A stretch of DNA of 64,000 nt. Source: a virus. The stretch spans positions 1 through 64,000 of IMG/VR virus record IMGVR_UViG_3300045412_000261; one strand, written 5' to 3'. Within the stretch, counting starts at the first letter, position 1, and each line of letters begins with the position of its first letter. Shown piece by piece: positions 8,513 to 25,560 of the stretch. A program made the translations under genes and the position numbers. Below the pieces are notes generated by a model. That model did no database searches. It was given only the letters and a program-made list of their open reading frames with translations, and was not told the DNA's origin.

Positions 8513-9022
8513 TTACTTTTTCTTTTTCTTTTTAGCTGCTTGAGCTTGCTTCCATAGCTTATCATCAGCACTTCTTGAACCTCCCACACCAGTGATAAAG
8601 CTATTTACTCTACCCATTGCCCATTGGTCTTGAGATACTCCAGGCCTATGCCCAGAATTCCATGCAGCTTTTCCTTTATTATAAACTTGACGTAATATGC
8701 CTAAAGGAATTTCAGACTTTTCTGCTTTGTTTTTTAGTCCCTTTTCGGAAGAATCTTCATCCAAAGAAATAGCATCCATATATTCTACTACTTTCTGATG
8801 TATAATTTCGCCGAATCTTTTTTTAAATGCTTTCGTAGCTGCTCCTTGTTTTGTTTTTATCCTCTTTCCGTCATCAGTGTAATCAGCGTCCCAATCCTGC
8901 TTGTAGTCGTCTTTGCCTGAAAATCTGTCAATTTCTTTTTTCATAGCTTCTTTTGATCCCTTTTTTCCCTTATCTTTTAGTCCTTTAAGATATTTTTCAG
9001 GTACTTTTCTTTGATCATCCAT
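8513..9022 (-). CDS. conserved viral basic protein (DUF5824-like)
   Basis: LKNKAEKS.IP.GILRQVYNKG.AAW.SGHRPG.SQ.QWAMGRVNSF motif, recalled from large phages and NCLDV. Confidence 0.55.
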   Translation of the reverse strand: MDDQRKVPEKYLKGLKDKGKKGSKEAMKKEIDRFSGKDDYKQDWDADYTDDGKRIKTKQGAATKAFKKRFGEIIHQKVVEYMDAISLDEDSSEKGLKNKAEKSEIPLGILRQVYNKGKAAWNSGHRPGVSQDQWAMGRVNSFITGVGGSRSADDKLWKQAQAAKKKKKK

Positions 9023-9035
9023 AATACAGTTTGTT

Positions 9036-10406
9036 TTATAAGTTATTGTTTTGTTTTTCCAATTCTAAAAAGTCTAAAACAGGTTTATATCTATTAAAAT
9101 ATTTCGGGTATATTTCTTTGTACTCTCTCAATTGATATATATTATTCACCTTTACTAGATCTTTTTCATAAGTTGTTGAAATAGAACTTTCATCTTTAAT
9201 ATGTATTGTCCCAATATCGCTTCCATACAATCCGGGACTATAATTTTCAATAATAAAAGGAAATTTTTGTAGAAACTCAAACACTTCATTCACTTTAATC
9301 TTTTTCCACTCCATGCTAATTACTATCTTTTCATCTAAAACTATCTGATCTACTGGCGTATATTTGTAATTATGTCCAAAAATTCTATCTTCTAAGCAGA
9401 ATAGAGTATTAGGTTGTTCTTTTTTTATATAAAATTTGACTAGTTCTCTGTATTTTTTATCTCCTACAATATGTAAAGAATCGCAAAAAATTTCTAAAAA
9501 TCCAATAAAATCTATAAACTCTTCATCACTTGGTTGATTAATTTCAAAAGATATGTCAACAATGATTCCAATATTGTATTTTTTATTAGGAGATATGGCA
9601 TGATATTCATTTTGAAGTGGCATTCCTCCCCATTTCCTAATAAAATTTCTTGTTGATATGATGTTCTGCTCCTCCCATTCATCTGAATTTTTTCCAACCT
9701 GTGTGATAGTTGGATTAAATCTTGATCCCCTACATGTCATGTGATAAACAAATCCTTCCCATGTCTGTACGAATGTTGCTCCATTTAACATTAATCTATT
9801 CCAAATGTCAGAATCTTCTTTTGATTGAACATAGAATAAAGAATCATGTCCACCAATGCTTAAAAATTCTTCTTTATAGAAAGCCCATGGAGCAAAAACG
9901 CCTCCTGTTGTCTTCTCTTTTTTAGATGATTTTGTTTTCATGTTGTGGATAAGCTCTAAAAACTTATCCTCTATAAATGTTTCTGGCTCCGTTCCTAAAT
10001 CCACGGTTATTTTTTCATGCCCCGCTGGATGTAGTGGGGGCTCTACTCTAGTAAGTGATACGATAGTTTTTTTGTCTACCATGTTTGCTTCAATCGCATC
10101 TAATGCTCCCGGAGCTAAATACATGTCGCAATGCCATATAATGCATATATCATATATAGATCTTCTAATTAAAGCATCATACAATATGGTATGACCTAAT
10201 CTCGTATTCCCTTCATTACGCATAACTTTGAGAATAGGATTAACTAAAGATTCGCTATAAACCCATTCCCAAGTACCGTCAGTAGATGCGTCATCGGCAA
10301 AACAGATTTCAACTTCGTGATTCCCTTTATTTTTCATAATAGAATCATAAGACCATTTGAAATACTTTAAGTTATTTCTTCCTGGGACAATAAAACTAAT
10401 TTTCAT
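9036..10406 (-). CDS. GT2-family glycosyltransferase
   Basis: ISFIVPGRN, DDASTDGT, HCDM, GGHD and EDSD motifs. Confidence 0.88.
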   Translation of the reverse strand: MKISFIVPGRNNLKYFKWSYDSIMKNKGNHEVEICFADDASTDGTWEWVYSESLVNPILKVMRNEGNTRLGHTILYDALIRRSIYDICIIWHCDMYLAPGALDAIEANMVDKKTIVSLTRVEPPLHPAGHEKITVDLGTEPETFIEDKFLELIHNMKTKSSKKEKTTGGVFAPWAFYKEEFLSIGGHDSLFYVQSKEDSDIWNRLMLNGATFVQTWEGFVYHMTCRGSRFNPTITQVGKNSDEWEEQNIISTRNFIRKWGGMPLQNEYHAISPNKKYNIGIIVDISFEINQPSDEEFIDFIGFLEIFCDSLHIVGDKKYRELVKFYIKKEQPNTLFCLEDRIFGHNYKYTPVDQIVLDEKIVISMEWKKIKVNEVFEFLQKFPFIIENYSPGLYGSDIGTIHIKDESSISTTYEKDLVKVNNIYQLREYKEIYPKYFNRYKPVLDFLELEKQNNNL

Positions 10407-11406
10407 TTACTAGATTATTAAGTTTGTTTATAAAACGTTTTTTGAATATATCTTCATGGTAGTTCTCCTTATAGGAAAATAAAGTTTCCTCAGAACATGT
10501 ATTATAAAATGTAGGATTTGATAATTTCTTAATTATCTCCGCAGCTGCTTTTATGTCACCTAAATCCACAGTAGTGTATGGGTGAAGATATTCCTGAGTA
10601 TCCAATCCTCGATACCCAATACAAGGAATGCCTAAATATGCACAATTCAACGCAAATGTACCAGCAGCATGGGTTCTCATCAAGTGAACGCCAATCTTAG
10701 CTTTCACCGACAGTGTTTCTATAAAATGAGTCCAATCCATGTATGGAAAATGATTAATATCCGGGATTAGTTCCTCATCTTCTTTCTTTCTGCCCATTGA
10801 AGGAGCAAATATAGGAATTAGTGATGAAACTTCAGATTCCGATTTTGAGAAATATTTCCTACCGCTTAACGCTGTTAAAAATGAATCCATTCCACCATAC
10901 CAAGAACAGTAATTACCACCAATTACAATACCTTCTGCTTCATATTTTTTAGATACTATATGTTTAACAGTATCTTCAATCATTAGAGAAGGCATAACTA
11001 GACATTCTAGATTAGTAATTCCTTTGTAGTAACGAGAATCTGACGAATTATGACAGAGTAAAAAGTCACAAGTTCTAAGCGCATTGTAGAAATTAACTTG
11101 AGTTTCTACGTCGTAATCTTGCCAGTACCAATTAGGGCCTTCTTGCATCATACAGACTTTTTTAGCAAAATAAGTTTTAACAAACTCAATGTCTAAAAAA
11201 GGATTATTTTTTCCAGGAATAACAATAGCTAAGTCTAATTTTTTAAAAGATGGATTACTTTCTATATACTGTTTTATTAGTTTAGTATTAGAGGGAACAT
11301 TTAATGCATCTAAAGCAATGGACCATGCAACATCTGTTCTTGTGTTGTTAAAATCTCTAGGAAATTTGACAAAATTACCTATTTCGGATATTATAGCTAC
11401 TTTCAT
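10396..11406 (-). CDS. GT-B fold glycosyltransferase
   Basis: MKVAIIS start; C-terminal AAGTFALNCAYLGIPCIG motif. Confidence 0.65.
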   Translation of the reverse strand: MKVAIISEIGNFVKFPRDFNNTRTDVAWSIALDALNVPSNTKLIKQYIESNPSFKKLDLAIVIPGKNNPFLDIEFVKTYFAKKVCMMQEGPNWYWQDYDVETQVNFYNALRTCDFLLCHNSSDSRYYKGITNLECLVMPSLMIEDTVKHIVSKKYEAEGIVIGGNYCSWYGGMDSFLTALSGRKYFSKSESEVSSLIPIFAPSMGRKKEDEELIPDINHFPYMDWTHFIETLSVKAKIGVHLMRTHAAGTFALNCAYLGIPCIGYRGLDTQEYLHPYTTVDLGDIKAAAEIIKKLSNPTFYNTCSEETLFSYKENYHEDIFKKRFINKLNNLVNEN

Positions 11407-11409
11407 ATA

Positions 11410-11997
11410 TTATAGAACTTTACAGATAATTCCTTCGCTATCTACTAAAACAACACTGTTAAAAACATTATATCCAGCATCATGTCCAATATATTTTACA
11501 ACTGACATTCTATTATTATCAATAGTCTCGTCAACCGCTCTTTTTACTCCTTTTGTAGTAGGATGTCCATAATCATCAAAAACTACATATAAATCTTTAT
11601 TATTTTTTTTCATTCTAAGACATCTCTCAATATCTTCTTTTACATTTGGATAATCATGTACGCAGTCAATAAAGCATAAATCTATATCATATAATATAGT
11701 AATATATGTTGAATTAGAATAAGCATTTCCTACTATACATGAAATATTCTTTCTACCTCTATTATTCTCAATTACTTTTTTGATATTATCGTCGGAGTGA
11801 TCTATTGCATAGACTTTTTCGGCTATGTAGGATAATACTCTAGTCGTATATCCCCAGTTAGCTCCTATTTCTAGACATGTTTTTATGGATTTATCAGAAA
11901 AAAAATCTAGTAAATCCTTTTTAAATTTGTGAGATGTAGTGTTTTTATTATCCTTTTTATCTGGTATTCCCTGTAGGATTTCTTCATAATTATACAT
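11410..11997 (-). CDS. class I SAM-dependent methyltransferase (Methyltransf_24-like)
   Basis: CLEIGANWGYTT, YAID, DLCFIDCVHDY and VFDDY. Confidence 0.88.
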   Translation of the reverse strand: MYNYEEILQGIPDKKDNKNTTSHKFKKDLLDFFSDKSIKTCLEIGANWGYTTRVLSYIAEKVYAIDHSDDNIKKVIENNRGRKNISCIVGNAYSNSTYITILYDIDLCFIDCVHDYPNVKEDIERCLRMKKNNKDLYVVFDDYGHPTTKGVKRAVDETIDNNRMSVVKYIGHDAGYNVFNSVVLVDSEGIICKVL

Positions 11998-12919
11998 AAA
12001 ATAATCTTGTTAGTTTTTCGTAAAAAATATTATCTTGATTAACAATGAAATCCCGAAAAAGGTTACATTTATAATGATATTTATCCGGATTTCTATTTAT
12101 ATTAGAGACAACTTTGTGATATTCAGATGGAGATTCGACAAAATTCATATAGGCATCAGCTCCGAAAAAATCAATATCATAAGGATAGGTTACAATAGGA
12201 CATTTAGAAAAAGCTATTTCTGAATATCTATTATTAATCATACCTAATTCTCTTTGTCCTTTACCTATGATTGCAACAGCACTTTTTGCAGATTTATATA
12301 ATGACCCTATATTATTTGGTGGAAGCAATTCAATCCAATTCTTATGATTATTCCAGCCATTTCCATAAATAGAGATTACATCATTATGCTCAGAGAAAAA
12401 TATATTTCTTTCTAAATTATATGAATCATCCGTAAGTCTATTAAATCCCATTCCTAAAAATACACTTCTTTTATCATATTTAGGATTGTATTCTAATTCA
12501 TTATCTTCTATAGCTAAAAAATAATACTGAAAATTTTCTGCACAAACATTAGTATACAAGTCATCGTACATTTTTTTAGAGTTGGTAATTATTTTATCAT
12601 AGCATACTCCCCATCCTTTTACAATGCCTTCATATCCTAAAATGCCATTAGATGTTGCACATAATATTCTATTCCTACATTTTACATTTTTCATTATATT
12701 AAATGTAGCTGCATCTAACATCTCATAATAAATGACATCCGGATCTATTTCATCAATATTATTTTTATATTCTTCCGCATGTGTGTCGTCAATTTCAGAC
12801 ATGTTTAATTGTTGTAATAAAATGACTTCATATCCTTTTTCATGTAATCTCTTTCCCAACATTTCGGATAATTTATAATTACCCATGGGATACGGTTGAT
12901 GTATAATTAAAATTCTCAT
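11990..12919 (-). CDS. GT-B glycosyltransferase (CgeB/Glyco_trans_1_2-like)
   Basis: SVFLG, IYGNGW, LYKSAK and INNRYSEIA...PIVT. Confidence 0.75.
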   Translation of the reverse strand: MRILIIHQPYPMGNYKLSEMLGKRLHEKGYEVILLQQLNMSEIDDTHAEEYKNNIDEIDPDVIYYEMLDAATFNIMKNVKCRNRILCATSNGILGYEGIVKGWGVCYDKIITNSKKMYDDLYTNVCAENFQYYFLAIEDNELEYNPKYDKRSVFLGMGFNRLTDDSYNLERNIFFSEHNDVISIYGNGWNNHKNWIELLPPNNIGSLYKSAKSAVAIIGKGQRELGMINNRYSEIAFSKCPIVTYPYDIDFFGADAYMNFVESPSEYHKVVSNINRNPDKYHYKCNLFRDFIVNQDNIFYEKLTRLFYV

Positions 12920-13569
12920 TCTTGAAAAATTATTAGCATTTCCATATTATAAGGGCTAGTGGCATATACTGAATATCCATAAGAGTTTGCTATATTTTTT
13001 ATTGTCTCTAATGTAACATTTGTATAATCACATTTTCCATCTTGATTAGTTCCAAATAAATGCGCATCGTCAATAGCAATCAAATCATTTTCCTGCGCCG
13101 TTTCAAATATAAGTTCAAGTTCTTTTAGCAGAGGTACGTCCTCTTCTCCTCTAGCATACTTATCCGCTCCTGCATGAGCGTCTAACCAAAAACACATAGG
13201 TTCTTCTCTGTCTTTTAGAAAATCACGAAGAAAAGAAACGCTATCGTTCTTGTGTAACCATAACTTATCTGAAAAATAAGAACAAACGTCATTAAAATCA
13301 GTATCTTCGGTATCATCTGATAAAATAGCATCAAAAAATTCTCCCTTCTTCTCAATTTTCTTGAATCTGTTAGATGCTATCTTAGCGATTGATTCCCCTA
13401 ATTCTACTGTAATCCATTTGTCAAAATCGTCTAAACTTCCGTTGTGTCTAAGTGCTGTAAGCGCTGATCCTCCTTTAAAAGTACCTGTTTCTACAAATAT
13501 TTTAGGGCAAGGTCTTCTTAATTTTTCTTGAGCAATTGCATGGTAAAAGGCTGGTAAAATGTAACCCAT
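12916..13569 (-). CDS. class I SAM-dependent methyltransferase-like protein
   Basis: FVETGTFKGGS, ITVEL, DSV, FWLDAH, PLLKEL and IDD. Confidence 0.75.
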   Translation of the reverse strand: MGYILPAFYHAIAQEKLRRPCPKIFVETGTFKGGSALTALRHNGSLDDFDKWITVELGESIAKIASNRFKKIEKKGEFFDAILSDDTEDTDFNDVCSYFSDKLWLHKNDSVSFLRDFLKDREEPMCFWLDAHAGADKYARGEEDVPLLKELELIFETAQENDLIAIDDAHLFGTNQDGKCDYTNVTLETIKNIANSYGYSVYATSPYNMEMLIIFQE

Positions 13570-13581
13570 ATTATAATGTAT

Positions 13582-13842
13582 TTAAATAATTTCGTTGTCT
13601 GTCGCTTCATCAAAATATAAACCGTATAAATCAAATAAAATATCGGCTATTTCATTATCTATATCATTTATCCATTCAAAATTTCTATGATAATACATTT
13701 TTATAATTTCGTTTATCAATTCATCATCGTTTGAGGCCAATATGAAAGCTATATTTAAAGTTAAGTCTTCATCCTCTGTATTAGTTTTAAACCTCACAAG
13801 ATCCCTTATAGTTCTTTGTACTAATTGTAATTTTTCCTCCAT
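13582..13842 (-). CDS. small acidic hypothetical protein
   Basis: 86-aa D/E-rich ORF directly downstream of the GNAT-like gene. Confidence 0.55.
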   Translation of the reverse strand: MEEKLQLVQRTIRDLVRFKTNTEDEDLTLNIAFILASNDDELINEIIKMYYHRNFEWINDIDNEIADILFDLYGLYFDEATDNEII

Positions 13843-13844
13843 AT

Positions 13845-14753
13845 TTATTTAAATGTTAAATTGAACAGGTCTTTATCAATCTTATTTTTAACATAATCTT
13901 CTAATACTTTCATGCTATATGAGTTATCTGACAAATCAAAATAACCATCCCAATCTCCTCCTCTCTCTTTCCAAAAATTTCTTCCCGTTTCTGTTTTTAA
14001 GAAATCCTCTATTTTAGACACTTTTCCGTTTGGGTATAATTCATTGTACTCATCTATTAAATAAGAATAAGTGCTTTGGGCTGATCTATCCGGGATAAAG
14101 CCATATCTTAGGTAGGCATAATATCCTGTAGAATTGCCTCTTTTTAAGAATTCGCCTTCTATTTTTTTTATTTTACCAAAAGCCTTTAAGTTTGCTATTT
14201 GTCTAGTTAATATATTTAAACCTCCTCCTGAAACATTTTCTCCTTCTTTTTTTATAGTTCCTATAAATTTATTTATGAGTGTTTTAGTATTAAAATCATA
14301 TTCAGTTTCTATGTGATATCTTTTAGATTCAAATAAAAAATAAGTCTCTCCAGTATTTTTCTTTTTTATAACTACTCTCTCAATATCTGATAAATTTGTA
14401 TCCGGTGATATTCCGCTCATATAGGCTAATAGTCTAAATTCTCGCTCTGTTTTTTTAGTCATAAATTTTTCACTGTCTAGCTTTTTTTGTTTTTTCCAAG
14501 AAATTCTTTCGTCATCATCGCTCCCTCCAAAAAACATATTATCACTCCCTTCTTTGACTTCTTTGTAATTTAATACCTCTATTGGATACTTATAAGACTT
14601 TTTATCTACTTCGAAATCACTGACTGAAGAATACTTTTTTTCTGTTTTAGATAGATTTTTAACAATTTTGTTTAGGTTTTTTTCGTGTATCTTTAATTTT
14701 TTAAGACTTTTCTCTAAATCATTTAAAGTTTTTTTTATATCATCGGAAGCCAT
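13845..14753 (-). CDS. hypothetical protein with GNAT-like C-terminal domain
   Basis: SGGGLNILTRQI...GYYAYLRYGF resembles GNAT motifs A and B. Confidence 0.45.
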   Translation of the reverse strand: MASDDIKKTLNDLEKSLKKLKIHEKNLNKIVKNLSKTEKKYSSVSDFEVDKKSYKYPIEVLNYKEVKEGSDNMFFGGSDDDERISWKKQKKLDSEKFMTKKTEREFRLLAYMSGISPDTNLSDIERVVIKKKNTGETYFLFESKRYHIETEYDFNTKTLINKFIGTIKKEGENVSGGGLNILTRQIANLKAFGKIKKIEGEFLKRGNSTGYYAYLRYGFIPDRSAQSTYSYLIDEYNELYPNGKVSKIEDFLKTETGRNFWKERGGDWDGYFDLSDNSYSMKVLEDYVKNKIDKDLFNLTFK

Positions 14754-15783
14754 ATTCTTTCATTTTATTTAAAAAATCTTTATAGGTGTTTAATTTACTT
14801 TGCTTACTACGTCCGTCGTAGAGTTTATTTAGATTATCTCGATTCATATCTCTTACAATATTATACCAGTCTCCTTTTTTTCCTTGGGTGCTCTCTGTCT
14901 TATCAAATGCAGATAATACATATTTCCTTTTTTCCGGATGCTCTCTATTGTGTACTTTAAGTATGTGTTTTACTACATACTGAACAAACATTTTATCCAT
15001 GACCCTCATACATTCGTACATAAAGGCGGTATCTTCGCCACTCAATCCCCAGAATCCTAATGGAATATTTGCTCCAGCTTTTATTAAATCAGAACTTATG
15101 CATAGAAAACTTCCATCAAATTTAGGATGGTATAACAAATCAATTTCTTCATGTGACTCATATTTTTTATTTATTTCATCCATTTCATCTTTAGTCATAA
15201 CATATCTTATAGAATGTTTTTCAGTAAAACATCTAGGGTCAGACTTTTCATAATATGGTAAATCTGTAAATTCAATATGTTCTAAAGGCTTCCATGACTC
15301 ATCCCACATTTTCCTATCAGCAAATGTAGTAATATATCTGTAACAATTATCTAAAGCAGCAGCATCTCTTATTTCATCAAGTATACGAAAAGCGCAATGA
15401 GGTACTAAACAGTCGGTTTCTCCCCAAATAACCCAATCTACTTTATTAGCATATTTATAATTTAAGTCTCTTCGATAATTTACCATAGTATAAGGCTCAT
15501 TACCATATTTTTGAAAATCAGTTTGAATTATATTACAGTTAGTCTTTTCTTTTAGTAAACTGATTATTTTCATAAATTTCCAGACTATTTCAGCTAACCT
15601 ATCTTTACTTTCGCATACTTCAAAAGAATCGCATGTATTTAGTAGTAAATCTATGTAAATGTTTTCTTGATTTTCTATATCCTTTACCGAATCTATTATA
15701 CTTTCAATTAAATAAGGAAGCATGTCTATTTCATAAAACATAACATTTGTCCCTATAACATATTTATATTTTAGCTTAGTCAT
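14740..15783 (-). CDS. GT-A fold glycosyltransferase (GT2-like)
   Basis: DWVIWGETDC (DxD-like), GSFLCISSDL, GEDTAF and HNR. Confidence 0.65.
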   Translation of the reverse strand: MTKLKYKYVIGTNVMFYEIDMLPYLIESIIDSVKDIENQENIYIDLLLNTCDSFEVCESKDRLAEIVWKFMKIISLLKEKTNCNIIQTDFQKYGNEPYTMVNYRRDLNYKYANKVDWVIWGETDCLVPHCAFRILDEIRDAAALDNCYRYITTFADRKMWDESWKPLEHIEFTDLPYYEKSDPRCFTEKHSIRYVMTKDEMDEINKKYESHEEIDLLYHPKFDGSFLCISSDLIKAGANIPLGFWGLSGEDTAFMYECMRVMDKMFVQYVVKHILKVHNREHPEKRKYVLSAFDKTESTQGKKGDWYNIVRDMNRDNLNKLYDGRSKQSKLNTYKDFLNKMKEYGFR

Positions 15784-16516
15784 ATTTATTATTTAAAAAA
15801 TTAAAAGTTTCTTGCATCCAATAGGCAGGCGTTGGTTTAACCCCACCATTAAAATGATAAATCCAGCCAAAATTAGTGTGTAACATCTTCACGGTCAGGA
15901 CTTCAAATCTATTCATATCCTGCATATTATATTCATAAGGTAAATATGCTTTTTCAATATTATAAATTTCAGATAGGTAGTTTAAAATTGGTTGATCTTT
16001 ACCTACTCCATATCCTTGAAAATTCATTAATTTATCTCTATTTTCCGCATAAAAATATCTTACATCTTCAAAGAATTTATTATGAGACTTATTGAATATC
16101 ATAACTCCGGAATTAAAGTATCTAAAAGGACTAATACTTATTGATTTATTAAATAGAACATCGGAGCAATTTTCTATACTTCTACATACCCAATCCATAC
16201 ATCCAAAATTTCTGACTACTCCAAATTTATCTCCTGCTAAATCAAATATATAGGGCATTTTAGGATGTACTATAGTATCCGAATCTACATACAAAACTCG
16301 ATTATAGTCAATATTTTCCGCCCTTAGTATGTTTGGAATGAATATTTTATTCCATTGAAATCCTAAATCAGAAACAACTTCAGATGATATAGAAAATAAT
16401 TCTACATTATTAGCATCACACCATTTCTTCCAGGATTTTGAACTTATTGAATAGCCTTGATTAGCAGATCTCTCTGATTTATTTATTGCTATCTGAACAA
16501 CTATATCTTTACTCAT
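15776..16516 (-). CDS. GT8-like glycosyltransferase
   Basis: VLYVDSD, YFNSGVMIFN, DQPILN, LPYEYN and IYHF. Confidence 0.85.
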   Translation of the reverse strand: MSKDIVVQIAINKSERSANQGYSISSKSWKKWCDANNVELFSISSEVVSDLGFQWNKIFIPNILRAENIDYNRVLYVDSDTIVHPKMPYIFDLAGDKFGVVRNFGCMDWVCRSIENCSDVLFNKSISISPFRYFNSGVMIFNKSHNKFFEDVRYFYAENRDKLMNFQGYGVGKDQPILNYLSEIYNIEKAYLPYEYNMQDMNRFEVLTVKMLHTNFGWIYHFNGGVKPTPAYWMQETFNFLNNKYD

Positions 16517-17315
16517 AATATTTTTTTACTAAATCCCATGTCTTTGACATTAATTCATATCTATCTCCCCTAGTAGGGAATCCGCTGAACATCCAAAACC
16601 ATCCATATTTAATAAAGAAAGGCTCTTTATTTCCTAATTGCCAATTATGACTCATCCAATTAAAACGATATAAATGGGTGAGCATATAGGCGGGATTTAG
16701 AGATTCTAAATCAAATGGAATATTATTATCTTGTATAAAATAGTTAAATACAGGTTGGTCGGTACCTCTCTTTATTTTTTCATTCTCTAAAAACATAATT
16801 TCCTTATTCTTATCCTTAAATAGTTTTTCTAAATTAGAAAGAAATTCGTAATTTTTGGAGTTCAAAATAACATTTCCCGTACATATATATCTTTTTAAAT
16901 CAAAGTTAACAGAAAATAAATCTTTATACCCTTGTATTCCTTCGTTTATCCAATATAGATTTTCTAAAGATCTATGTCCATATACAATTTCAGGATTTAG
17001 GTCATGAAAATCCCATGGAGCAGGAGCATCCCATCGAATTATTGTAGACCCATCTACAGCCCATATCCAATTAGGAGTGATATTTTTATTTGTTATAACT
17101 TTTTTCATGTCAAACCATCTTTGCCAAGTAACTTTTGTTCCTGACTTTTCTGGATTATAATCTGACAATTCATAAGGTACAAAAATTGTATTATTCTTTT
17201 CGCACCACCATTCCCAAGATTTTCTTGATACGTCTAAATAATTAAATCCTCCATGTTTATCATTCATATGTGGGTCTTTATTTTTAACCCCAATCCAATA
17301 AACAACATTTTGCAT
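16509..17315 (-). CDS. GT8/GT34-like glycosyltransferase
   Basis: SWEWWCEKNN, WAVDG, YICTG and TDQPVFNY; paralogue-like to the downstream gene. Confidence 0.7.
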   Translation of the reverse strand: MQNVVYWIGVKNKDPHMNDKHGGFNYLDVSRKSWEWWCEKNNTIFVPYELSDYNPEKSGTKVTWQRWFDMKKVITNKNITPNWIWAVDGSTIIRWDAPAPWDFHDLNPEIVYGHRSLENLYWINEGIQGYKDLFSVNFDLKRYICTGNVILNSKNYEFLSNLEKLFKDKNKEIMFLENEKIKRGTDQPVFNYFIQDNNIPFDLESLNPAYMLTHLYRFNWMSHNWQLGNKEPFFIKYGWFWMFSGFPTRGDRYELMSKTWDLVKKYYE

Positions 17316-17318
17316 AAT

Positions 17319-17816
17319 CTATAATTTATTTTTGTTTCGCATCAAATACCCTAAATATTTACTCTTAGACTTCTTTTCGAGTATATAATTTCTGTGAATT
17401 TGATTTTTTGAATTGTTGCACCATTCTAAATTAGATACAGTATTATTTGTCTTTTTTCCATCTATATGATTTACTTGAGGATGATTTTCTGGATTGGGGA
17501 TAAAAGCCATTGCCACTGCTCTGTGCATAGCCACATTGAACCTAGATACAACGCCGGTATCCTTTGTCGGGTAAGAAAATCGAATCATTAAGTATCCTGA
17601 TGTTGTGAAAGATTGAGCTAAAATTGCTTCTTTTAAAGTGTATGATGAATAATTGTATTCTGAACCATTTTCTCTTCTTCTTTTTTGAACGCATAATCTA
17701 TCCATCCTTTTTACTCGACCTAAATTAGATACTTGATACCAATCCTCATAATTTGGAAAAGGCTTCCAAATCTCTCCAGGTAAAGGTTTCAAATCCATAT
17801 TTTCACGAATTTCCAT
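17319..17816 (-). mobile_element. free-standing NUMOD4-HNH homing endonuclease gene
   Basis: EIWKPFPNYEDWYQVSNLGRVK (NUMOD4); HRAVAMAFIPNPENHPQVNHIDGKKTNNTVSNLEWC (HNH). Confidence 0.9.
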
Positions 17817-17951
17817 AAAGTGAAATTAAAAAAATCGGGATGGATTTTCCATCATCTACGATAACTCGTTATTTTAACTTTTAAACTACCGATTCTAAAT
17901 TATTAACTAATTAATATATAATAGTTATATGACAAAATAAAAACAACATAC

Positions 17952-19208
17952 TTATATTAAACCAGAATTTATACCTGTTTGTTGAATTAACTCCCAATAT
18001 TTTTTACTTGCTGTACCTGATTTGTATACATCTGGTTTATTATAGGGTAATTCATCTATATAGTCGGCTTTGCAGAAAAACTCAGGATTTCCTTTAACTA
18101 CCCCGGCATTATGGAAGATATTGTTTCGGTACCAAGAATTTTCGTCATCTGTTGCCCAGGAAAAAGATAGGTTACCGTGTACAATTGTATTAGCATTCAT
18201 CTTCCATCCATTAAATAATATTGCCCACATGTCCGCACACCAAATTTGAAGTTCTTCATAGTTGGGATTTTCCTGCTTTTTTAAGTTGTTAATTGCTGTG
18301 ATATCTCTAAATAAATTCTCGGAGTCTCTTTCTACGTTATGCCAGAAATGATAGTCGATATTTTTGAGAATGTATTGTGCGCCTATATTATTATGATTGT
18401 TTGCTAATAATGTTTCTTGAGGTATATTAGCTATAAAGCAGACGGAATTAAGTACATCAATTCCTTTACTGTCTATATAATCATGAGAAAGATATGAATT
18501 ACAGTCAGAACCATACCAGTTACTATCCTGCACCATGTTATCACTAATCCACTCGTTTATAGGTCTTGTTAATACTATATCACAATCATGGTAGAATATA
18601 GCATCATTAACTAAATCAGGATTTCTTTCCCAGTGTTGTTTTAAAATATTAGGTCTTATAGAAGAAATATAATTTTTAGACTGTCTTGTATCCGGATAAA
18701 AATAATATCTAACCGAATTATATTTCATAATGAGCTTAAACCAAGGATGAGGAATGGTATTTGTCTCATCTAGTGCGCAAACAATATTAATTGCCGAAGG
18801 TTCTACTCCCATTGATAGGAAGTTTTCAATCATTACTTCTACTTGCCACGCATAATATAACGTAGCAGGTTGTGCGCAAATAAATTTTAAAGTAGATGGT
18901 GGAGCAGCTTGCATGGTAGGTACAGGTGGAGCAACATACTCAGGTATTTGATTCGCTAACTCCTTTATTTCATTCGACATGTTTTTATCTACTTCAGCCC
19001 ATTTACCTTCAGGACATGCGTTTTCTACCGGTGAATATATCTTACTTTTTAATAAACACCCACATACTCCACAATGAATAGTAGGAGATGTTTTCTTGTG
19101 TTCACAGGCATCACATATCGCTATGCGAGCCTCCGCTAATTTACTTTGCTTTTCGTTGGGGTTTAATTGTATTCCCCAGGATCTTAAAATCTCTACAAAT
19201 TTATTCAT
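17952..19208 (-). CDS. Cys-rich N-terminal domain fused to a peptidyl-Ser galactosyltransferase / Hyp-arabinosyltransferase (SERGT1/HPAT)-like GT-A domain
   Basis: CDAC...CGVCGC...CPEGKW; Pro-rich linker; YYAWQ, Y.SSIRP..LKQHW, FYHDCDI and WCADMW. Confidence 0.6.
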   Translation of the reverse strand: MNKFVEILRSWGIQLNPNEKQSKLAEARIAICDACEHKKTSPTIHCGVCGCLLKSKIYSPVENACPEGKWAEVDKNMSNEIKELANQIPEYVAPPVPTMQAAPPSTLKFICAQPATLYYAWQVEVMIENFLSMGVEPSAINIVCALDETNTIPHPWFKLIMKYNSVRYYFYPDTRQSKNYISSIRPNILKQHWERNPDLVNDAIFYHDCDIVLTRPINEWISDNMVQDSNWYGSDCNSYLSHDYIDSKGIDVLNSVCFIANIPQETLLANNHNNIGAQYILKNIDYHFWHNVERDSENLFRDITAINNLKKQENPNYEELQIWCADMWAILFNGWKMNANTIVHGNLSFSWATDDENSWYRNNIFHNAGVVKGNPEFFCKADYIDELPYNKPDVYKSGTASKKYWELIQQTGINSGLI

Positions 19209-20248
19209 GATTCTTTTGTTATTCCGTCTAGGTTTGCTAAAATGTTATAAAAATGTAATACAAAATTCTGCGGGGAATACAAATCAATCAATGTCTCCCT
19301 CACATTATTATTAATATCTTTAACATCATTATTGTTCAATGATAGTAGAACATCAATAAGATCATTTAAATCATCCCAATTATTATTACATGCAAAATAA
19401 GTCTCTCTATCAATGTAAGGATTAGGAGTAGTAATGACATTATCCATGAAAGGCTTAATTAATATACATCCCATATTCCATATCTCAAAATCTCTAAAAC
19501 ATATCTCACCCATGCCAAAAGGAGATACAGCACATTTACTCTTAATCAATCCTAATCTATAATCTTCAGGACTAAGCCTACCGGAAACGACATTATAGGT
19601 ATCGCCCAATCTATCCAACTCCACCAAGCTCCGCTTTCTATGTCTATTATAATATAAATCGTTGCGAATTCCAAAGTCATAATTCTCCTTATGATCCGCT
19701 TGATAAACTGCAAATACATCATATTCTTTTTTTACTTCATGATTCGCAAATTGAACATATTGAGGATGATAGTACCCGAGATTATAACCAGATAAAACAA
19801 TGTCATCATATCTTTTTACATCATAGGATATCTTGTCCTCCGGGCCGGCATACATGTTCCACCATTCTTTACCCAATGGAGATGGAATGCTATATACATC
19901 TTTACTATATTTTTGATTCTTTATTAATCTCTCTGCATTGCTATTCTCAAATACATCATAAGACCCTAAAATAGATGGAGAATCAGAACCATCATATAAC
20001 ATGTATCTCCCATCTATCTCATGTAATCTTCCCAATCCATAATCAATAGACTCCTGTAAAGACTTCGCCCGCCGGTTAATGAAACACTCGTCACCTAAAA
20101 TGCTTATATCCCAACTGTCTATCCTATGATCCCCAGCAATAATAAAATCTATTCCTACATCATTGAACAAATCTTTATACATCAAAAATCCTCTATATGT
20201 AGCTTTATTTCTACCTATATTATCATCAACTAATCTAATACGTAACAT
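19205..20248 (-). CDS. GT-B glycosyltransferase (exostosin/Glyco_trans_1_2-like)
   Basis: Y...L..SKCAVSPFGMGEICFRDFE...GCILIKP. Confidence 0.75.
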   Translation of the reverse strand: MLRIRLVDDNIGRNKATYRGFLMYKDLFNDVGIDFIIAGDHRIDSWDISILGDECFINRRAKSLQESIDYGLGRLHEIDGRYMLYDGSDSPSILGSYDVFENSNAERLIKNQKYSKDVYSIPSPLGKEWWNMYAGPEDKISYDVKRYDDIVLSGYNLGYYHPQYVQFANHEVKKEYDVFAVYQADHKENYDFGIRNDLYYNRHRKRSLVELDRLGDTYNVVSGRLSPEDYRLGLIKSKCAVSPFGMGEICFRDFEIWNMGCILIKPFMDNVITTPNPYIDRETYFACNNNWDDLNDLIDVLLSLNNNDVKDINNNVRETLIDLYSPQNFVLHFYNILANLDGITKES

Positions 20249-20277
20249 AAGTTCAACATTAATAGGAATAATCCTTA

Positions 20278-21048
20278 TTATAATTTAGAATACATTTCAT
20301 TTTGACTAATCTGCTTATCTAAACTCTTAACATGTAATAAAGACCAATTCCACTCATCCGGAATAGCAGAATAGTGTGAATACCCTGTAATTACTTCATG
20401 CACTTTATTCTTAAATCTAATATGGTCTTTATTCCTATATATCCTAGTTTGATAATCCGGAAAATTAATAATAGGATTATGATATACCACCATTCTATTA
20501 GTACCTTTATCATCTATCTTATAATCTTCCTTTATCAAATTATTCATCTCAAGTATCTTATATAAATCACTGTATATACTTATAGGCTCTGGAGTAGATA
20601 CAACAGCTTCTTCATGTTTACTAATTTTCCATCCCCATTGGTTAATCCATTCTTGCGTAATGTTATTTACAATGTTTATTCTTGGAACGGCAATCATTTC
20701 CATGTTTTCATTAATTTCCAACAATTCTTTCACATTATATAACAAATACGGATTCAATAATTCATCCGCATCAATTTGAAAAATCCATTCACCTCTTGCA
20801 TGTTCAAATAAATTGTTCTTAAATGTAGCAAAATCACCGTTCAATGAAAAATTTACATGTTTAATAGAATCCGAAATGTCATGATTTTTTATAACATGCA
20901 GAACATCTTTAGTAACCTTTGAAGAGTCAGTCTGAACTATAATTTCCGTATCTATTCCTAAAACACCTTCTAACTGGGATAGGAGGATAAATAGCTCTTC
21001 GTTTTCATTACAAGCCGTTACACAATAAGACAAAAATATATTATCCAA
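20278..21048 (-). CDS. GT2-family glycosyltransferase
   Basis: SYCVTACNE, FATFKN, EWIFQIDADE, PDYQTRIYRN and KVHE. Confidence 0.88.
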   Translation of the reverse strand: MDNIFLSYCVTACNENEELFILLSQLEGVLGIDTEIIVQTDSSKVTKDVLHVIKNHDISDSIKHVNFSLNGDFATFKNNLFEHARGEWIFQIDADELLNPYLLYNVKELLEINENMEMIAVPRINIVNNITQEWINQWGWKISKHEEAVVSTPEPISIYSDLYKILEMNNLIKEDYKIDDKGTNRMVVYHNPIINFPDYQTRIYRNKDHIRFKNKVHEVITGYSHYSAIPDEWNWSLLHVKSLDKQISQNEMYSKL

Positions 21049-21508
21049 TTTCTCTATATTTTGGAGCGTTTAATTCATATAGTTTCTCAAAAGCAAAGCG
21101 GAATCCATCGGCCTCAAACTCAAAGGCATTATCCACATCTACTTTCCTTTTTATCTTGGCATTAGGGTAGGACTTAATATCATCATCGGTAAAGTCTACA
21201 ATAGCACATACTTTCCATACGAGTTTTCTTTCATTGCTCTCATCTGGAAAAATAACCGCCGTGTCCAAAGAAAATACAAAAGGATACCATACACAATTAT
21301 CAACGTCGATATGCCTCTTGTCAATGCAAATCCGGGGCAGCGTCGACTCATACTGAATCTGATTATCCGATCCTAGAACAAGACTTGAGTCCGTATAGTA
21401 GCCGCTGCCCATACAAAGTTTAGTAAGCAACCCAGAATCAGAAAGTTCTACAATAACTTCGTCTTTACCTGTTATAGGAGACTTTTCTTCTAATGTTTGA
21501 TCAATCAT
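21041..21508 (-). CDS. hypothetical protein
   Basis: 155-aa ORF overlapping both neighbours. Confidence 0.6.
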   Translation of the reverse strand: MIDQTLEEKSPITGKDEVIVELSDSGLLTKLCMGSGYYTDSSLVLGSDNQIQYESTLPRICIDKRHIDVDNCVWYPFVFSLDTAVIFPDESNERKLVWKVCAIVDFTDDDIKSYPNAKIKRKVDVDNAFEFEADGFRFAFEKLYELNAPKYREIG

Positions 21509-22791
21509 TTTACTAATTTTAGTTTTGGTAAATTTAATTTATTTAATTTTGGCTGTTTTGAAACTTCTGTTTCTATAGAGTCTAATAAATGCTCTAATTT
21601 ATCTACCATTTTTTCAAAAGTAAAATGAGCTATGGTGTGTAATCTCTGCTTTTCTGCGTTCTCTTTGTGTTTGTTATAATTAGTAAACACATCTGCAATA
21701 ACCCCAGCAGCATACATATAATCTACAGTAAACCATTTTGATTCCTGTATAAACCAATCATTAAGTACGGACCTATCAATAGGTTCCAATCGGCCTGGAA
21801 GTAAAGAAGTATATTTCGGGTGGAGAAAATCCAAGTGTCCTGACCAATTAGAAGCAATAATAGGTTTTCCAGTAACGGAGAACTCTGCTAAAGGTCTTCC
21901 GTATCCTTCACCTTTAGTAAATGAAATCATTGCTTTAATTTTAGGATTGTTATACAAATTATTCATTTCATCATCTGATAATTCACCATGTACAATGTAT
22001 ATATTTGGACCTGATTCTCCATCAGTTATAGATCTTATTTTAGACTGTATTTCATTTAAATCCCCTATTGAATAATTTCCTCCACTCGTTTTTAATATTA
22101 ATGCAGGTCTATTTTTTTCCGGCATTCTTTTAAATGTATCAAAAAATACCTTTATCATGGCTCCCACATTCTTTCTATCATTTCCAAAAGAACCATTTAA
22201 CCAATGGCCTACAAATAGATAACAGAAATCTTCTTTAATATCATCTAATAAGCTCACATTTGCATCAGGATTAACTTTATTACTATATATGGTAGTATCA
22301 ACTCCCTCAAATAAAATCTCTCGTCTCAGCCCGTCTCTGAGCTTTAAAGTTCCTTCTAATTGATTAGTGTTTTTATTTACTTTATCAAATACAGAATCTT
22401 CTATTACATCAAGAGAATGTTTTGATGTTGCAATGAGCATATCCATGTTATTACATCCTTCAATCCATTTAGGTGCGCACATATCTGTCTCAATTCCTGC
22501 GGTAAAACCTATATTATATTTTCCACACCTAACAAATTCATTAGGTATCGTTAGCTGTATGAAAATATCATCATTAGCATCTGTCTTAGGTACTATTCTT
22601 TTTATAATCTCTAAATCATTAGGATTATTTTTATCCAAAGCATTTGTAGGAGTATTTCCCCAGGCTGTGGATACAATTTTTAAATCGTACTTGTCAGATA
22701 AAGCTATTAAAGCCCATGCAATATCTCTTCCATGTGCTCCATATCCAGAAGATGTATATACAGGTGCGACTAAAGTTACTTTCTTTTTCAT
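21505..22791 (-). CDS. GT4-family glycosyltransferase
   Basis: SGYG, RKN and KGEGYGRPLAEF...KPIIASNWSGHLDF. Confidence 0.9.
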   Translation of the reverse strand: MKKKVTLVAPVYTSSGYGAHGRDIAWALIALSDKYDLKIVSTAWGNTPTNALDKNNPNDLEIIKRIVPKTDANDDIFIQLTIPNEFVRCGKYNIGFTAGIETDMCAPKWIEGCNNMDMLIATSKHSLDVIEDSVFDKVNKNTNQLEGTLKLRDGLRREILFEGVDTTIYSNKVNPDANVSLLDDIKEDFCYLFVGHWLNGSFGNDRKNVGAMIKVFFDTFKRMPEKNRPALILKTSGGNYSIGDLNEIQSKIRSITDGESGPNIYIVHGELSDDEMNNLYNNPKIKAMISFTKGEGYGRPLAEFSVTGKPIIASNWSGHLDFLHPKYTSLLPGRLEPIDRSVLNDWFIQESKWFTVDYMYAAGVIADVFTNYNKHKENAEKQRLHTIAHFTFEKMVDKLEHLLDSIETEVSKQPKLNKLNLPKLKLVK

Positions 22792-24281
22792 AAAATTCCT
22801 ATTGCTTTATTAGTTTTTTCAGGAGTTATTTTGTGAATAGAAAATTTAGATCTAGGTTTCCAATTTTCTAGGGCTATTCCTATATTTTTTATAAATCTAT
22901 TGCTCATTTCTTCGGCGGACATTCCCACTTCTGGATTTAGAGCAAAGGTAATTCCATTCATACCTAATCCCTTTCTTTCCTCTCTTGGTTTTTGATACCA
23001 ATAAAAAAGACCTTCAGCTACATCTTCAAAAGACACTCTATCGTCAAAAATATAAGGAGTTGCCGGTGATCCTTGCAAAGACCTGTTACTAGGAAATATA
23101 GGATATGCCCAATTCCCATGAGTTTTATAAACTCCAGAATGATTAGTGGGGAAATCTTTTGTGAATTTTATATATTTTCCTTTCTTATCAACAAATCCGC
23201 ATTGGTCTTGGAGACCTCCTGTTACATTGTTTATAATTGGGGTGCCCGCCATAAGAGCTTCTGCTCCTGATAATCCAAATCCCTCATTTGATGCTATATT
23301 TACTACCACATCGGCAAAATTATACCAAAAATTTAAAGTTTTAGTATCTATTTTTTTATCAGAAAAAATAACTTTACCAGAAGGATTTATTGCTTTTACA
23401 GTGGCTATTAAATCAGTTCCATTTCCGTCTATTGGATCTGTATGCATTACTAAAACACATCTCTCTGCTTTTTCAGGAGTTAATTTTTCGCAGAATTTAC
23501 TAAATGCTAAAACAACATCTCCTGGTTGTTTTCTTCTAATATTTCTATTATTCCAAAATACTAAATAATCTGTAGGAGTTTCTTTTTTAAACTCAGAAAT
23601 GTACTTTTCATATTCATCAAATACTTGACTTTTTGAAGTAATTTTATAAATATGTTTATTGTTTATACCATGAGGAATGTAGGCTGTATAAGTCGTATTA
23701 TTTGAAAATGATGTCGGTAATCCTAAATCCAAATCATGAAATTTATAATCATTTTCTTCTAAGACTACATTAACTAAATTGTGAGTTTGTTTTGATATGT
23801 TGAAAATAAAATCGCATGATGCATAAAATTCCGCATTCCAATGAGGATATGGTAAATCATCCCATATATTATAATACATCAAAGGAATTGTTGTTCTAAT
23901 TTCTCTTTCCATTGCGTATAACCATTCCCAAAATCTAGGATCTGTAAAATGTAATATTGCATCAGGAGATTCTCTAGATATAATTTCCCTAAGTTTTTGT
24001 GGATCTCCATAGCCATTATTTGGATATATAAGTACGCTAGCATCGTCTATACCCATTTCTTTGTTTACGTCCTCTGAGACATCTATAATTTTTCCAGAAT
24101 CTGGATTTTTTATAGCTGCTCCTAATTGAACCCAATCGAAATACTTTGCTGTACCAACTACAATTTCTCTAGACATTACTCCGATACCTGAGTTTAGCCT
24201 TAAGTCATCGGATAAAAGCAGTATTTTTTTCTTCTTAGGCCTATTGGTAATTTTTCTTAATTTTGGTAATTCAAAATTCAT
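22788..24281 (-). CDS. GT4-family glycosyltransferase
   Basis: IPHGI, NRNIRRK and NEGFGLSGAEALMAGTPII..VTGGL. Confidence 0.9.
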   Translation of the reverse strand: MNFELPKLRKITNRPKKKKILLLSDDLRLNSGIGVMSREIVVGTAKYFDWVQLGAAIKNPDSGKIIDVSEDVNKEMGIDDASVLIYPNNGYGDPQKLREIISRESPDAILHFTDPRFWEWLYAMEREIRTTIPLMYYNIWDDLPYPHWNAEFYASCDFIFNISKQTHNLVNVVLEENDYKFHDLDLGLPTSFSNNTTYTAYIPHGINNKHIYKITSKSQVFDEYEKYISEFKKETPTDYLVFWNNRNIRRKQPGDVVLAFSKFCEKLTPEKAERCVLVMHTDPIDGNGTDLIATVKAINPSGKVIFSDKKIDTKTLNFWYNFADVVVNIASNEGFGLSGAEALMAGTPIINNVTGGLQDQCGFVDKKGKYIKFTKDFPTNHSGVYKTHGNWAYPIFPSNRSLQGSPATPYIFDDRVSFEDVAEGLFYWYQKPREERKGLGMNGITFALNPEVGMSAEEMSNRFIKNIGIALENWKPRSKFSIHKITPEKTNKAIGIL

Positions 24282-24298: not shown

Positions 24299-25252
24299 TT
24301 ACAATCTAGATTCGGGTGAGCAGAGGTCATGTTTTTCATTAAATTCGCAATAAGTACAATTAAAACAATTGTGTCCAGATATTGCGGTATATTCCATATC
24401 TATTTTATAGTTACCTTGTTTATCAAATACTGTCTTTACAAATGTTTTGAAGGTATCTAAGGCTAATGTTGTACTTTTTTTTGATTGAGCTGGTTTGAAA
24501 ATTTGTACTCTTTGCAAAGGAAAATCATAAGCATCCGCTATTCTTCGAACTATAGTAAATCTGCTATCTATATCATCGTATTCTATATCTAAACTCTTAG
24601 ACAAAAAGGCCTTATATAATAAAATCTGAGATGTTTTTATTTTATCTTTTTTTGAATAAGAACTCCACCCCTTTCCTGATGTCTTTATATCATCTATAAT
24701 TAATTTATTGCTTACCTTGTCATAAAATAATAAGTCGATAAATAAAATAAAATAGAGAGGCTCCTCTGAATTTATTATTTTTATCACCAGAGGAACCTCA
24801 ACACCTAATAGTGTCCAATTATGTCTATCGTAATATTGATCGTGATTACTTCTTATATGATTTAAAATATTAACACCTTGCTCCCAAAATTCTGATAATT
24901 CAGAACTTGTTGAAAAATGTTTTCCGTAATTATTATAATCTCTCTTATATATCTCTTTTATTTTATTTTTTAACTCTGTACTAAAATCAATAATATCTTT
25001 ATTTTCATTATTAGGACTATGATAAGAAATTAAGTATTCTTGAAGAACTTCATGAAATGCTGTTCCAAAACTCATGTGAATAGACGGAGGTCTAGTTCCT
25101 AATTTCAAGGCATAACTTAAAAACCATTTTTTAGGACATTGACTATACATATGAAATTGAGAAAAAGAAACGTGTTTGTGAGGTTTTTGTTTTATATCAT
25201 TTGCAAAAACTATAGCCTCATCTAACTTTATTTTTAAATCTTCCAAAACCAT
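24299..25252 (-). CDS. PD-(D/E)XK Cas4/RecB-like exonuclease
   Basis: SFSQ...CP, FGTAFHEVLQ, E, IDL, DDIKT, QILLY and C-terminal CxxCxxC...C Fe-S ligands. Confidence 0.85.
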   Translation of the reverse strand: MVLEDLKIKLDEAIVFANDIKQKPHKHVSFSQFHMYSQCPKKWFLSYALKLGTRPPSIHMSFGTAFHEVLQEYLISYHSPNNENKDIIDFSTELKNKIKEIYKRDYNNYGKHFSTSSELSEFWEQGVNILNHIRSNHDQYYDRHNWTLLGVEVPLVIKIINSEEPLYFILFIDLLFYDKVSNKLIIDDIKTSGKGWSSYSKKDKIKTSQILLYKAFLSKSLDIEYDDIDSRFTIVRRIADAYDFPLQRVQIFKPAQSKKSTTLALDTFKTFVKTVFDKQGNYKIDMEYTAISGHNCFNCTYCEFNEKHDLCSPESRL

Positions 25253-25262
25253 TTATTTTTGA

Positions 25263-25484: not shown

Positions 25485-25560
25485 TTATTTAGTTTTTAGT
25501 AGAAAACATTAAAATTACTAAAAGGTTTAAAATCTAATATAAATAGTTAATATTTATTAT

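Follow-up and report, generated by a model that had tools for sequence, protein, structure and literature searches.

A conserved glycan island of aquatic myophages and the virion proteins it may glycosylate

The first 64 kb (positions 1 to 64,000, called the window below) of the 142.6-kb IMG/VR viral contig IMGVR_UViG_3300045412_000261 contain, at 9036-24281, a block of back-to-back genes rich in glycosyltransferases (GTs). Judged from gene content and order, the block represents a conserved 'glycan island' of large aquatic myophages. What does the island build, and on which acceptor? We consider it an even call that cytoplasmic assembly of its glycans takes place on virion proteins of the phage itself. 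Confidence is higher for one enzyme of the block, GT418, which quite probably starts O-glycosylation on the (TTS)n stalk of a tail-fibre-like protein encoded at contig 87234-89378. The source virus is a T4-like myophage: the contig (~30% G+C, CheckV completeness estimate 82%) encodes a sheath, a UvsX-like recombinase, a DnaB-like helicase, ribonucleotide reductase (RNR) and a family-A polymerase (PolA). The closest cultured relative is Flavobacterium phage vB_FspM_immuto (immuto), whose PolA is 46% identical, and the host is therefore likely to belong to the Bacteroidota.

Gene content and conservation of the island

The block comprises 17 open reading frames (ORFs), all on the minus strand, with overlaps of 4-14 nt at 10 of the 16 gene junctions; the widest intergenic gap, and the sole sizeable one, measures 135 nt and lies beside an HNH endonuclease gene. 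A preliminary description of this DNA had spoken of co-oriented, mostly overlapping genes for about 11 GTs and two methyltransferases, and this picture stands, with one GT-B enzyme (11990-12919) only probable. Pfam, AlphaFold2 (AF2) with Foldseek, and profile searches give ten well-supported GTs (two GT2, two GT4, a GT8 pair, two more GT-A enzymes, a GT90-like GT-B and a GT4-like GT-B), one probable GT-B, two O-methyltransferase-like enzymes, the HNH gene and three unknowns. No block protein contains a hydrophobic 19-mer, and all are predicted to be soluble; the absence of transmembrane segments agrees with the cytoplasmic multi-enzyme assembly proposed earlier. The window is indeed devoid of nucleotide-sugar, flippase and polymerase genes, as had been described. 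Elsewhere on the contig the only nucleotide-sugar enzyme found is a short-chain dehydrogenase/reductase (SDR), a nucleoside diphosphate (NDP)-sugar epimerase/dehydratase at 136798-137811 (Epimerase 177 bits, GDP_Man_Dehyd 154 bits), in line with the view that host NDP-sugars are the main supply.

How far does this arrangement extend? This was examined through synteny across related phages, as suggested in the preliminary description. Seven close relatives keep every block gene in the same order at 70-90% identity, comparable to PolA. A scan with the family of the island GT-A enzyme (14740-15783) found at least 170 viral contigs, and the backbone order recurs in all 72 loci outside the phage's own clade that were retrieved from them. 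Such conservation, in the relatives and in the 72 loci, is far beyond chance. The order begins with a PD-(D/E)XK nuclease, GT4a, GT4b, a 155-aa ORF in some cases, GT2a and a variable slot (often GT90), and continues with GT8b, GT8a, GT-A, a second variable slot (MT2, GTBx), GTBy and GT2z; the nuclease holds the matching position in immuto and 14 other island loci. On a 151.7-kb contig the variable slots contain NeuB, a CMP-sugar transferase, two DegT aminotransferases, three dehydratase/epimerases and UDP-glucose dehydrogenase, and sugar-supply genes in variable slots are the pattern expected of a glycan-building locus. The slot of that contig with NeuB, the CMP-transferase and the two DegT aminotransferases (L090:1852-9978) likely encodes a nonulosonic-acid pathway, and some forms of the glycan may thus contain sialic-acid-like sugars. 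None of the 72 other islands has GT418 or the HNH gene, which makes the two a clade-specific insertion into a variable slot. In the gap between these two genes (17816-17952) a T-run follows a terminator-like hairpin (17853-17839, minus), and this feature may mark a boundary of the inserted segment; a scan for sigma-70 promoters and terminators gave counts equal to the shuffled expectation.

Immuto carries its own version of the island. It shares five island genes with this phage at 24-48% identity, and its island likewise follows a PD-(D/E)XK nuclease and runs GT4, GT4, small ORF, GT2 and, at the far end, GT-B and GT2. Both ends are thus kept, whereas the middle consists of WecE-type aminotransferases, an acetyltransferase and an epimerase. 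Immuto has no GT8 pair, island GT-A, GT90 or GT418, nor does it have the lysyl-hydroxylase-like fusion, collagen-like proteins or poly-Thr proteins discussed below. Megablast with the block as query found zero matches among 50,697 phage records, and the literature searched yielded no published description of the island or of a GT/poly-Thr pairing.

The genes of the block are as follows, from the first island gene to the last; fractions give presence among the 72 other island loci.

22788-24281, minus: GT4a, GT-B, first island gene; Pfam Glycos_transf_1 28.2 bits, GT4-conflict 26.2 bits; 28/72
21505-22791, minus: GT4b, GT-B; Pfam Glycos_transf_1 24.1 bits (E 2.9e-5), slightly below cut-off, and phrog_2170 glycosyltransferase 4.2e-11; 33/72
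21041-21508, minus: s155, 155-aa unknown; no Pfam or PHROG match; detectable in 7/72
20278-21048, minus: GT2a, GT-A, TTG start; Pfam Glycos_transf_2 36.1 bits; 38/72
19205-20248, minus: GT90-like GT-B; homologs with PF05686 (Glyco_transf_90), PF13524 and PF24785; 19/72
17952-19208, minus: GT418, Cys-rich N-terminal module and GT8/GT24-like GT-A domain; AF2, Foldseek, phrog_4417
17319-17816, minus: HNH/NUMOD4 homing-type endonuclease; Pfam NUMOD4 54.1 bits, HNH_3 28.4 bits
16509-17315, minus: GT8b, GT8-like GT-A; paralog of GT8a (phmmer 1e-10 to 4e-12, hhalign 96.6%); 59/72
15776-16516, minus: GT8a; Pfam Glyco_transf_8 32.9 bits; 60/72
14740-15783, minus: island GT-A, the marker gene, of a family without a Pfam model; AF2 mean pLDDT 95.1, pTM 0.93
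13845-14753, minus: 302-aa orphan, the most variable block gene; no family match
13582-13842, minus: 86-aa unknown; no family match, 50-80% identity to relatives
12916-13569, minus: MT2, class I S-adenosylmethionine (SAM)-dependent O-methyltransferase-like; profile of 23 homologs against the PDB; 12/72
11990-12919, minus: GTBx, probable GT-B and the weakest assignment; Pfam Glyco_trans_1_2 23.3 bits (cut-off 25), E 6.6e-5
11410-11997, minus: MT1, SAM-dependent methyltransferase; Pfam Methyltransf_24 39.8 bits, Fibrillarin 32.5 bits; 26/72
10396-11406, minus: GTBy, GT4-like GT-B; three weak, concordant lines; 60/72
9036-10406, minus: GT2z, GT2 with a ~250-aa C-terminal extension, last island gene; Pfam Glycos_transf_2 36.7 bits, Glyco_transf_7C 20.7 bits; 58/72

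At E<=10, Pfam left eight of these ORFs without any GT or methyltransferase match, and other methods were then used. All-against-all hhalign of shallow 8-sequence alignments of the block genes linked the GT8 pair alone. PDB profile searches with the GT418 and island GT-A families gave nothing useful, and structure prediction was therefore needed for both. A Foldseek search with the island GT-A model returned 224 matches at E<=0.001, all of them GT-A enzymes (COLGALT1, LARGE1, TarS/TarP, Mnn9); none of its 555 family members has a Pfam match, and no homolog was found in cultured phages. Among solved structures the best sequence match of GT4a is chlorovirus NY-2A B736L (3OY2), at E 4.3e-9 over ~125 residues. 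GT4a and GT4b are each 48% identical to their immuto counterparts (gp181 and the RfaG-like gp180), GT2a is 31% identical to gp178 and GT2z 36% to gp169; the place of s155 is taken in immuto by gp179 (152 aa). The GT90-like protein has no Pfam match of its own and owes its name to models that match its 218 homologs at ~40% identity. The three lines for GTBy are its nearest ESM Atlas clusters ('glycosyl transferase family 1', score 0.99), a tblastn match of 5.6e-13 to immuto gp173, annotated as a mannosyltransferase, and profile matches at 0.007-0.017 to BshA and other GT4 structures.

The MT2 profile matches YrrM (5ZW3) at 7.9e-8 and catechol O-methyltransferases at ~2e-5, and E27-T-G-T30 is invariant; MT2 has 1803 homologs in all. 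A different assignment of MT2, as a hexapeptide-repeat acetyltransferase, had come from a partial-match pattern and was ruled out by Pfam on the homologs and by the PDB profile. The presence of MT1 and MT2 agrees with the O-methylation that the preliminary description had thought probable. Homologs of GTBx show weak or faint PF13524 matches. The HNH gene is retained in 7/7 close relatives. The 302-aa orphan has just nine close homologs among 5.8 billion proteins and is 67-86% identical among close relatives, versus ~88% for the flanking genes. Two forms of this gene, the fastest-changing large gene of the block, occur among near-identical relatives, one at ~68% (L001, L003, L005) and the other at ~86% (L002, L004).

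The block sits in the replication region, beside PolA and the PD-(D/E)XK nuclease (24299-25252, minus; Pfam PDDEXK_1 64.1 bits), which lies outside the glycan pathway, and away from the structural genes. Between PolA and the nuclease, at 25252-25561, lies a short zinc-ribbon-like ORF whose product has two CxxC pairs, and a 73-aa gene is called at the matching position in relative L100. Just past the island end, at 8513-9022, a DUF5824 protein has a C-terminal part resembling the end of phrog_3041 (cytidyltransferase; 1.4e-13), and a link of this protein to sugar activation is possible.

GT418 and its pairing with poly-Thr proteins

What kind of enzyme is GT418? AF2 models residues 107-418 with pLDDT >90; for the Cys-rich module at residues 1-106 the model is poor. 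Foldseek matches the model to UGGT, LgtC and glycogenin. The catalytic domain compares with LgtC at VIA Z 14.7 (rmsd 3.4 over 232 residues) and with glycogenin and the UGGT catalytic domain at Z ~14. Against the wider group of GT8-clan retaining GT-A enzymes (LgtC, glycogenin, UGGT, Skp1 AgtA, pneumococcal GlyE), several of which modify proteins or protein-bound glycans, it superposes with Z 13-14.7 over 210-245 residues and keeps the DxD motif, D208-x-D210 being invariant in 49 sequences. It differs from them in its extra Cys-rich N-terminal module and in matching no sequence model: Pfam gave no match to PF01501 or any other GT family model even at E<=10, and a profile of the 49 sequences found no match in the PDB. 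GT418 matches phrog_4417 at 3.8e-60. Thus, by its predicted structure, GT418 is a GT8/GT24-like retaining-type GT-A in fold that forms a separate phage family (phrog_4417) and is not assigned to GT8. The preliminary description had listed a SERGT/HPAT-like enzyme in the block, a label that stays tentative: the PDB structures matched by GT418 include no member of GT96 or GT95, the plant and algal peptidyl-Ser/Hyp glycosyltransferase families of SERGT1 and HPAT.

The GT418 family extends over 308 viral contigs and 77 cultured phages, nearly all with Firmicutes hosts, and its members keep particular company. Of the 59 environmental loci with sufficient upstream sequence, 42 encode a protein bearing a poly-Ser/Thr tract (at least 16 Ser/Thr in 20 residues) whose gene ends ~50 nt upstream of the GT418 homolog; downstream of the homolog, none of those loci has such a protein. 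In the cultured Firmicutes phages phiFL1A, 1706, SA2 and Iacchus the gene directly before the GT418 homolog is annotated 'major tail protein' and its product closes with a poly-Thr tail; the phiFL1A capsid protein likewise ends in one. In some of the adjacent proteins an N-terminal tail-tube domain leads into mucin-like poly-Thr linkers; in the largest group the N-terminus matches an unannotated PHROG. These neighbours cannot all be called 'major tail proteins', since only nine loci show an N-terminal domain recognisable as that of a tail tube. In ~40 loci on uncultured siphophage-like contigs (L079:254-2122 and similar genes), one to four tandem genes encode Cys-containing repeat modules with long pure Thr/Ser linkers. 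These tandem genes, some with a tail-tube start, are followed by the GT418-family gene with a variable cassette (methyltransferase-like, GT2, 290-aa unknown) and then by the tape-measure gene.

Does this phage encode a comparable acceptor? The contig holds one strong poly-Thr/Ser protein, the 714-aa tail-fibre-like protein, in which 27 collagen triplets are followed by two tracts of Thr and Ser only (11 and 25 residues), then by a globular domain and finally by a Gly-rich tail. Both tracts are internal, unlike a C-terminal tail on capsid or tail tube. This fibre, two longer collagen-like fibres and the fusion enzyme discussed next are encoded as follows (contig positions).

87234-89378 (L094:5234-7378), minus: 714-aa tail-fibre-like protein with a collagen tract and Thr/Ser-only tracts
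66926-71536 (L093:2926-7536), minus: collagen-like fibre, 1536 aa; 158 Gly-X-Y triplets, 59 Lys at Y
100846-104409 (L095:846-4409), plus: collagen-like fibre, 1187 aa; 51 Gly-X-Y triplets, 22 Lys at Y
53547-55829, minus: PLOD-like fusion of GT-B, GT25 and 2-oxoglutarate (2OG) oxygenase in the head-neck block; Pfam Glyco_transf_25 60.1 bits

Neither of the two long collagen-like fibres has a single Lys at X of Gly-X-Y, and Gly-X-Lys, with Lys at Y, is the sequon of collagen lysyl hydroxylase. The OGFOD2-like and Glycos_transf_1 matches of the fusion are weak, and its PHROG is a glucosyltransferase. From these features, the fusion likely modifies the collagen-like fibres. Near the start of the window a subtilase gene (2543-4078, plus) is followed by one for a prolyl 4-hydroxylase (P4H)-type 2OG-Fe(II) oxygenase (4079-4666, minus), and this oxygenase could hydroxylate proline in the same fibres.

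A proposed pathway for virion glycans and its standing

How might these parts work together? The enzyme folds and families, their predicted solubility, the conserved gene order, the pairing of the GT418 family with poly-Thr virion proteins and the lack of the known DNA and lipid-carrier routes come from the analysis itself; acceptor, step order, donor sugars and biological role are our inference, as follows. Soluble Leloir-type GTs would add sugars in series in the cytoplasm, drawing on host NDP-sugars, and the product would be a complex, probably branched oligosaccharide on which the two O-methyltransferase-like enzymes may cap some hydroxyls. Virion proteins would serve as acceptors, modified before or during assembly. 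GT418, inserted in its variable slot, would start glycans on the (Thr-Thr-Ser)n fibre stalk, and the collagen-like fibres with their Gly-X-Lys triplets would be modified by the lysyl-hydroxylase/GT25 fusion encoded apart from the island. Such glycans may shield or stabilise fibres and capsid, or alter adsorption.

The preliminary description had favoured virion proteins as the target. For GT418 this finds indirect support in the poly-Thr pairing and in the (TTS)n fibre; for the conserved island it does not, and several observations count against it there. GT418 is missing from the 72 other islands. A run of at least 10 Ser/Thr codons occurs in 1/17 island-bearing contigs and in 0/2 complete genomes, and immuto, scanned over 17.9-137 kb, encodes neither collagen-like nor poly-Ser/Thr proteins. 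The poly-Thr evidence therefore covers GT418 and not the conserved backbone, and a test of whether all enzymes of the island lengthen glycans on poly-Thr tags gave no support. The position of the island among replication genes, and not among structural genes, points the same way. Solubility does not discriminate either, since the cytoplasmic GTs of O-antigen and capsule pathways are also soluble and the feature is thus compatible with a target on the host surface. Within the tally, GTBx is probably a GT-B, a call made below threshold for which a PDB profile search and hhalign against the other GT-B genes of the block lent no support. Finally, no particle of this phage group has been seen to carry a glycan.

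Alternative acceptors

The alternative that survives best, which we regard as a serious outsider, is remodelling of the host surface. The soluble GTs would act at the inner membrane face on host undecaprenyl-linked intermediates of O-antigen, capsule or glycoprotein glycans; host flippases or ABC transporters would export the altered glycan, which would block superinfection or keep progeny from sticking to debris. A host-surface role has been suggested for the 'LPS genes' (lipopolysaccharide genes) of cyanomyophages, and most Pfam and PHROG relatives of the block enzymes are LPS, O-antigen or teichoic-acid enzymes (GtrB-like, RfaG-like, WcaA-like, GT25 'LPS biosynthesis'). An island with constant ends and exchangeable sugar-supply slots is reminiscent of O-antigen and capsule loci, and the uncoupling of the island from poly-Thr acceptors and its place among early/replication genes would also suit this explanation. 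Where, however, would the lipid-carrier machinery come from? None of the 10 island-bearing genomes encodes an initiating phosphoglycosyltransferase: Bac_transf (PF02397) and WecA/MraY (PF00953) are each found in 0/10, the scan with these two models having covered those ten genomes and not our contig. The 142.6-kb contig has no ORF with more than four hydrophobic segments, hence no polytopic membrane protein of the WecA/MraY kind, flippase, polymerase or exporter; ORFs with any such segment all lie outside the block, whose proteins have no membrane anchor. Known phage seroconversion modules, moreover, consist of one to three genes, mostly for membrane proteins, in temperate phages, and the GT family tied to virion poly-Thr tags has been inserted into this very island. 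Host enzymes could supply initiation, flipping and polymerisation, and the absences therefore weaken the host-surface explanation and do no more.

A second alternative, improbable in our estimate, is some other cytoplasmic acceptor: host or non-structural phage proteins, some small molecule, or an oligosaccharide, free or lipid-linked, with a part in takeover or signalling. It draws on the fact that no acceptor for the conserved backbone was identified in the island contigs and the immuto scans, and on the three block genes without recognisable function. Yet nothing points to it directly. That eight or more transferases are conserved in one order over 170 contigs suggests that the product is a defined polymer on which selection acts, and variable decoration slots are typical of surface-exposed glycans.

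Could the sugars go onto phage DNA? In this scenario an oligosaccharide on a base would block restriction, as in T-even phages, RB69/DLP3, the 5-hydroxymethylcytosine (5hmC)-glycan clusters and YerA41. The island adjoins the PD-(D/E)XK nuclease, PolA and RNR, and with a completeness of just 82% the contig leaves room for further genes. Phage DNA-glycan clusters (T4 alpha/beta-GT, the 5hmC-glycan biosynthetic gene clusters of Pyle et al., the arabinosyl-5-hydroxycytosine of RB69/DLP3, YerA41) also rely on Leloir GTs akin to the enzymes of LPS and teichoic-acid synthesis, and in some of them several GTs act one after another. Precedents include mono- to tri-saccharides on 5hmC (bioRxiv 10.1101/2023.12.21.572611), poly-arabinose on 5-hydroxycytosine (PMC13326640) and a ~1 kDa modification on thymidine (PMC9023294). 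Those clusters differ from the island in that they add one to three sugars, the ~1 kDa case being uncharacterised, and in that they need a base-hydroxylating enzyme. The known routes require a hydroxylated base, made by a ThyA homolog or by a C5-methyltransferase with a TET-like dioxygenase (bioRxiv 10.1101/2023.12.21.572611; PMC13326640). The contig has no gene for a ThyA-family protein (PF00303), TGT/DpdA, Tet_JBP (PF12851) or C5-methyltransferase (PF00145), and three relatives reaching ~30 kb beyond its start have neither PF00303 nor PF12851. Among the island-bearing genomes PF00303 is absent from 9/10, both complete ones included, and PF00145 from 10/10; the Tet_JBP search ran without a positive control, which makes that particular absence weak. 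Immuto, with its five shared island genes, has dA, dC, dT and fdPreQ1 only in its DNA by HPLC-UV-MS and no glycosylated nucleoside (bioRxiv 10.1101/2023.04.13.536721). The sole DNA-modifying gene seen on the contig encodes a Dam-like N6-adenine methyltransferase; it overlaps the SDR gene, and the pair occupies contig 136798-138508 (L096:16798-18508, minus). DNA, which the preliminary description had named as an alternative, is thus an unlikely target, the most improbable of the three set out here.

Comparison with known virion-glycan systems

Returning to glycosylation of virion proteins, which systems come closest? The nearest proven one is virion glycosylation in mycobacteriophages, and the nearest analogy in scale is the machinery of chloroviruses and Mimivirus. 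Freeman and colleagues reportedly described, in Cell Host Microbe in 2023, virion glycosylation in mycobacteriophages Che8, Corndog and Myrna. There the glycans are said to sit on the C-termini of capsid and tail-tube proteins, as shown by mass spectrometry, with one to a handful of GTs and hosts among the Actinobacteria. To our knowledge, glycosylation of phage particles has been demonstrated experimentally for mycobacteriophages only, with few transferases. Those phages and this one have in common soluble phage GTs, an O-methyltransferase in some cases, Ser/Thr-rich stretches in virion proteins as acceptors and the host cytoplasm as the site. In contrast, the present system has 10-11 GTs of other families in a conserved island of Bacteroidota-type myophages, its only poly-Thr/Ser tract is internal to a fibre, and it is read from its genes.

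Chloroviruses are said to glycosylate their capsids with enzymes such as B736L, and Mimivirus its fibrils with L230, a lysyl hydroxylase/glucosyltransferase. The giant viruses resemble this phage in having many soluble virus-encoded GTs and methyltransferase activity in the cytoplasm, and in combining a PLOD-like hydroxylase/GT fusion with collagen-like proteins; B736L is also the best solved match of GT4a. Here, however, the virus is tailed and its host bacterial, and no gene order is shared. The likeness is a functional analogy, with homology at the family level only (the GT4a match given above, E 4.3e-9 over ~125 residues). A broader proposal, possible but on balance doubtful, would join the island, GT418, the PLOD-like fusion and the P4H-type oxygenase into a self-contained phage system for extracellular-matrix-like protein modification, a counterpart of Mimivirus fibril glycosylation. 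The mucin-like (TTS)n stalk would then bear complex methylated O-glycans and the collagen-like tail fibres hydroxylysine-linked sugars, and the ~8 GTs of the conserved backbone would amount to a virion-glycan pathway that is common among aquatic phages and has so far gone undescribed.

Significance

With 8-11 enzymes in fixed order, the island is a much larger glycan assembly line than the few-GT systems of mycobacteriophages, and a cultured Flavobacterium phage that carries part of it makes the question of its acceptor testable at the bench. If the glycan were instead placed on the host surface, this would be the first large lytic-phage pathway rebuilding a host glycan. If it is carried on virions, soluble GTs and sugar O-methyltransferases would become available as a glyco-engineering set, and the view of phage surface chemistry would change, with consequences for adsorption, stability, grazing, recognition by immune systems and lectins, and sinking in water.

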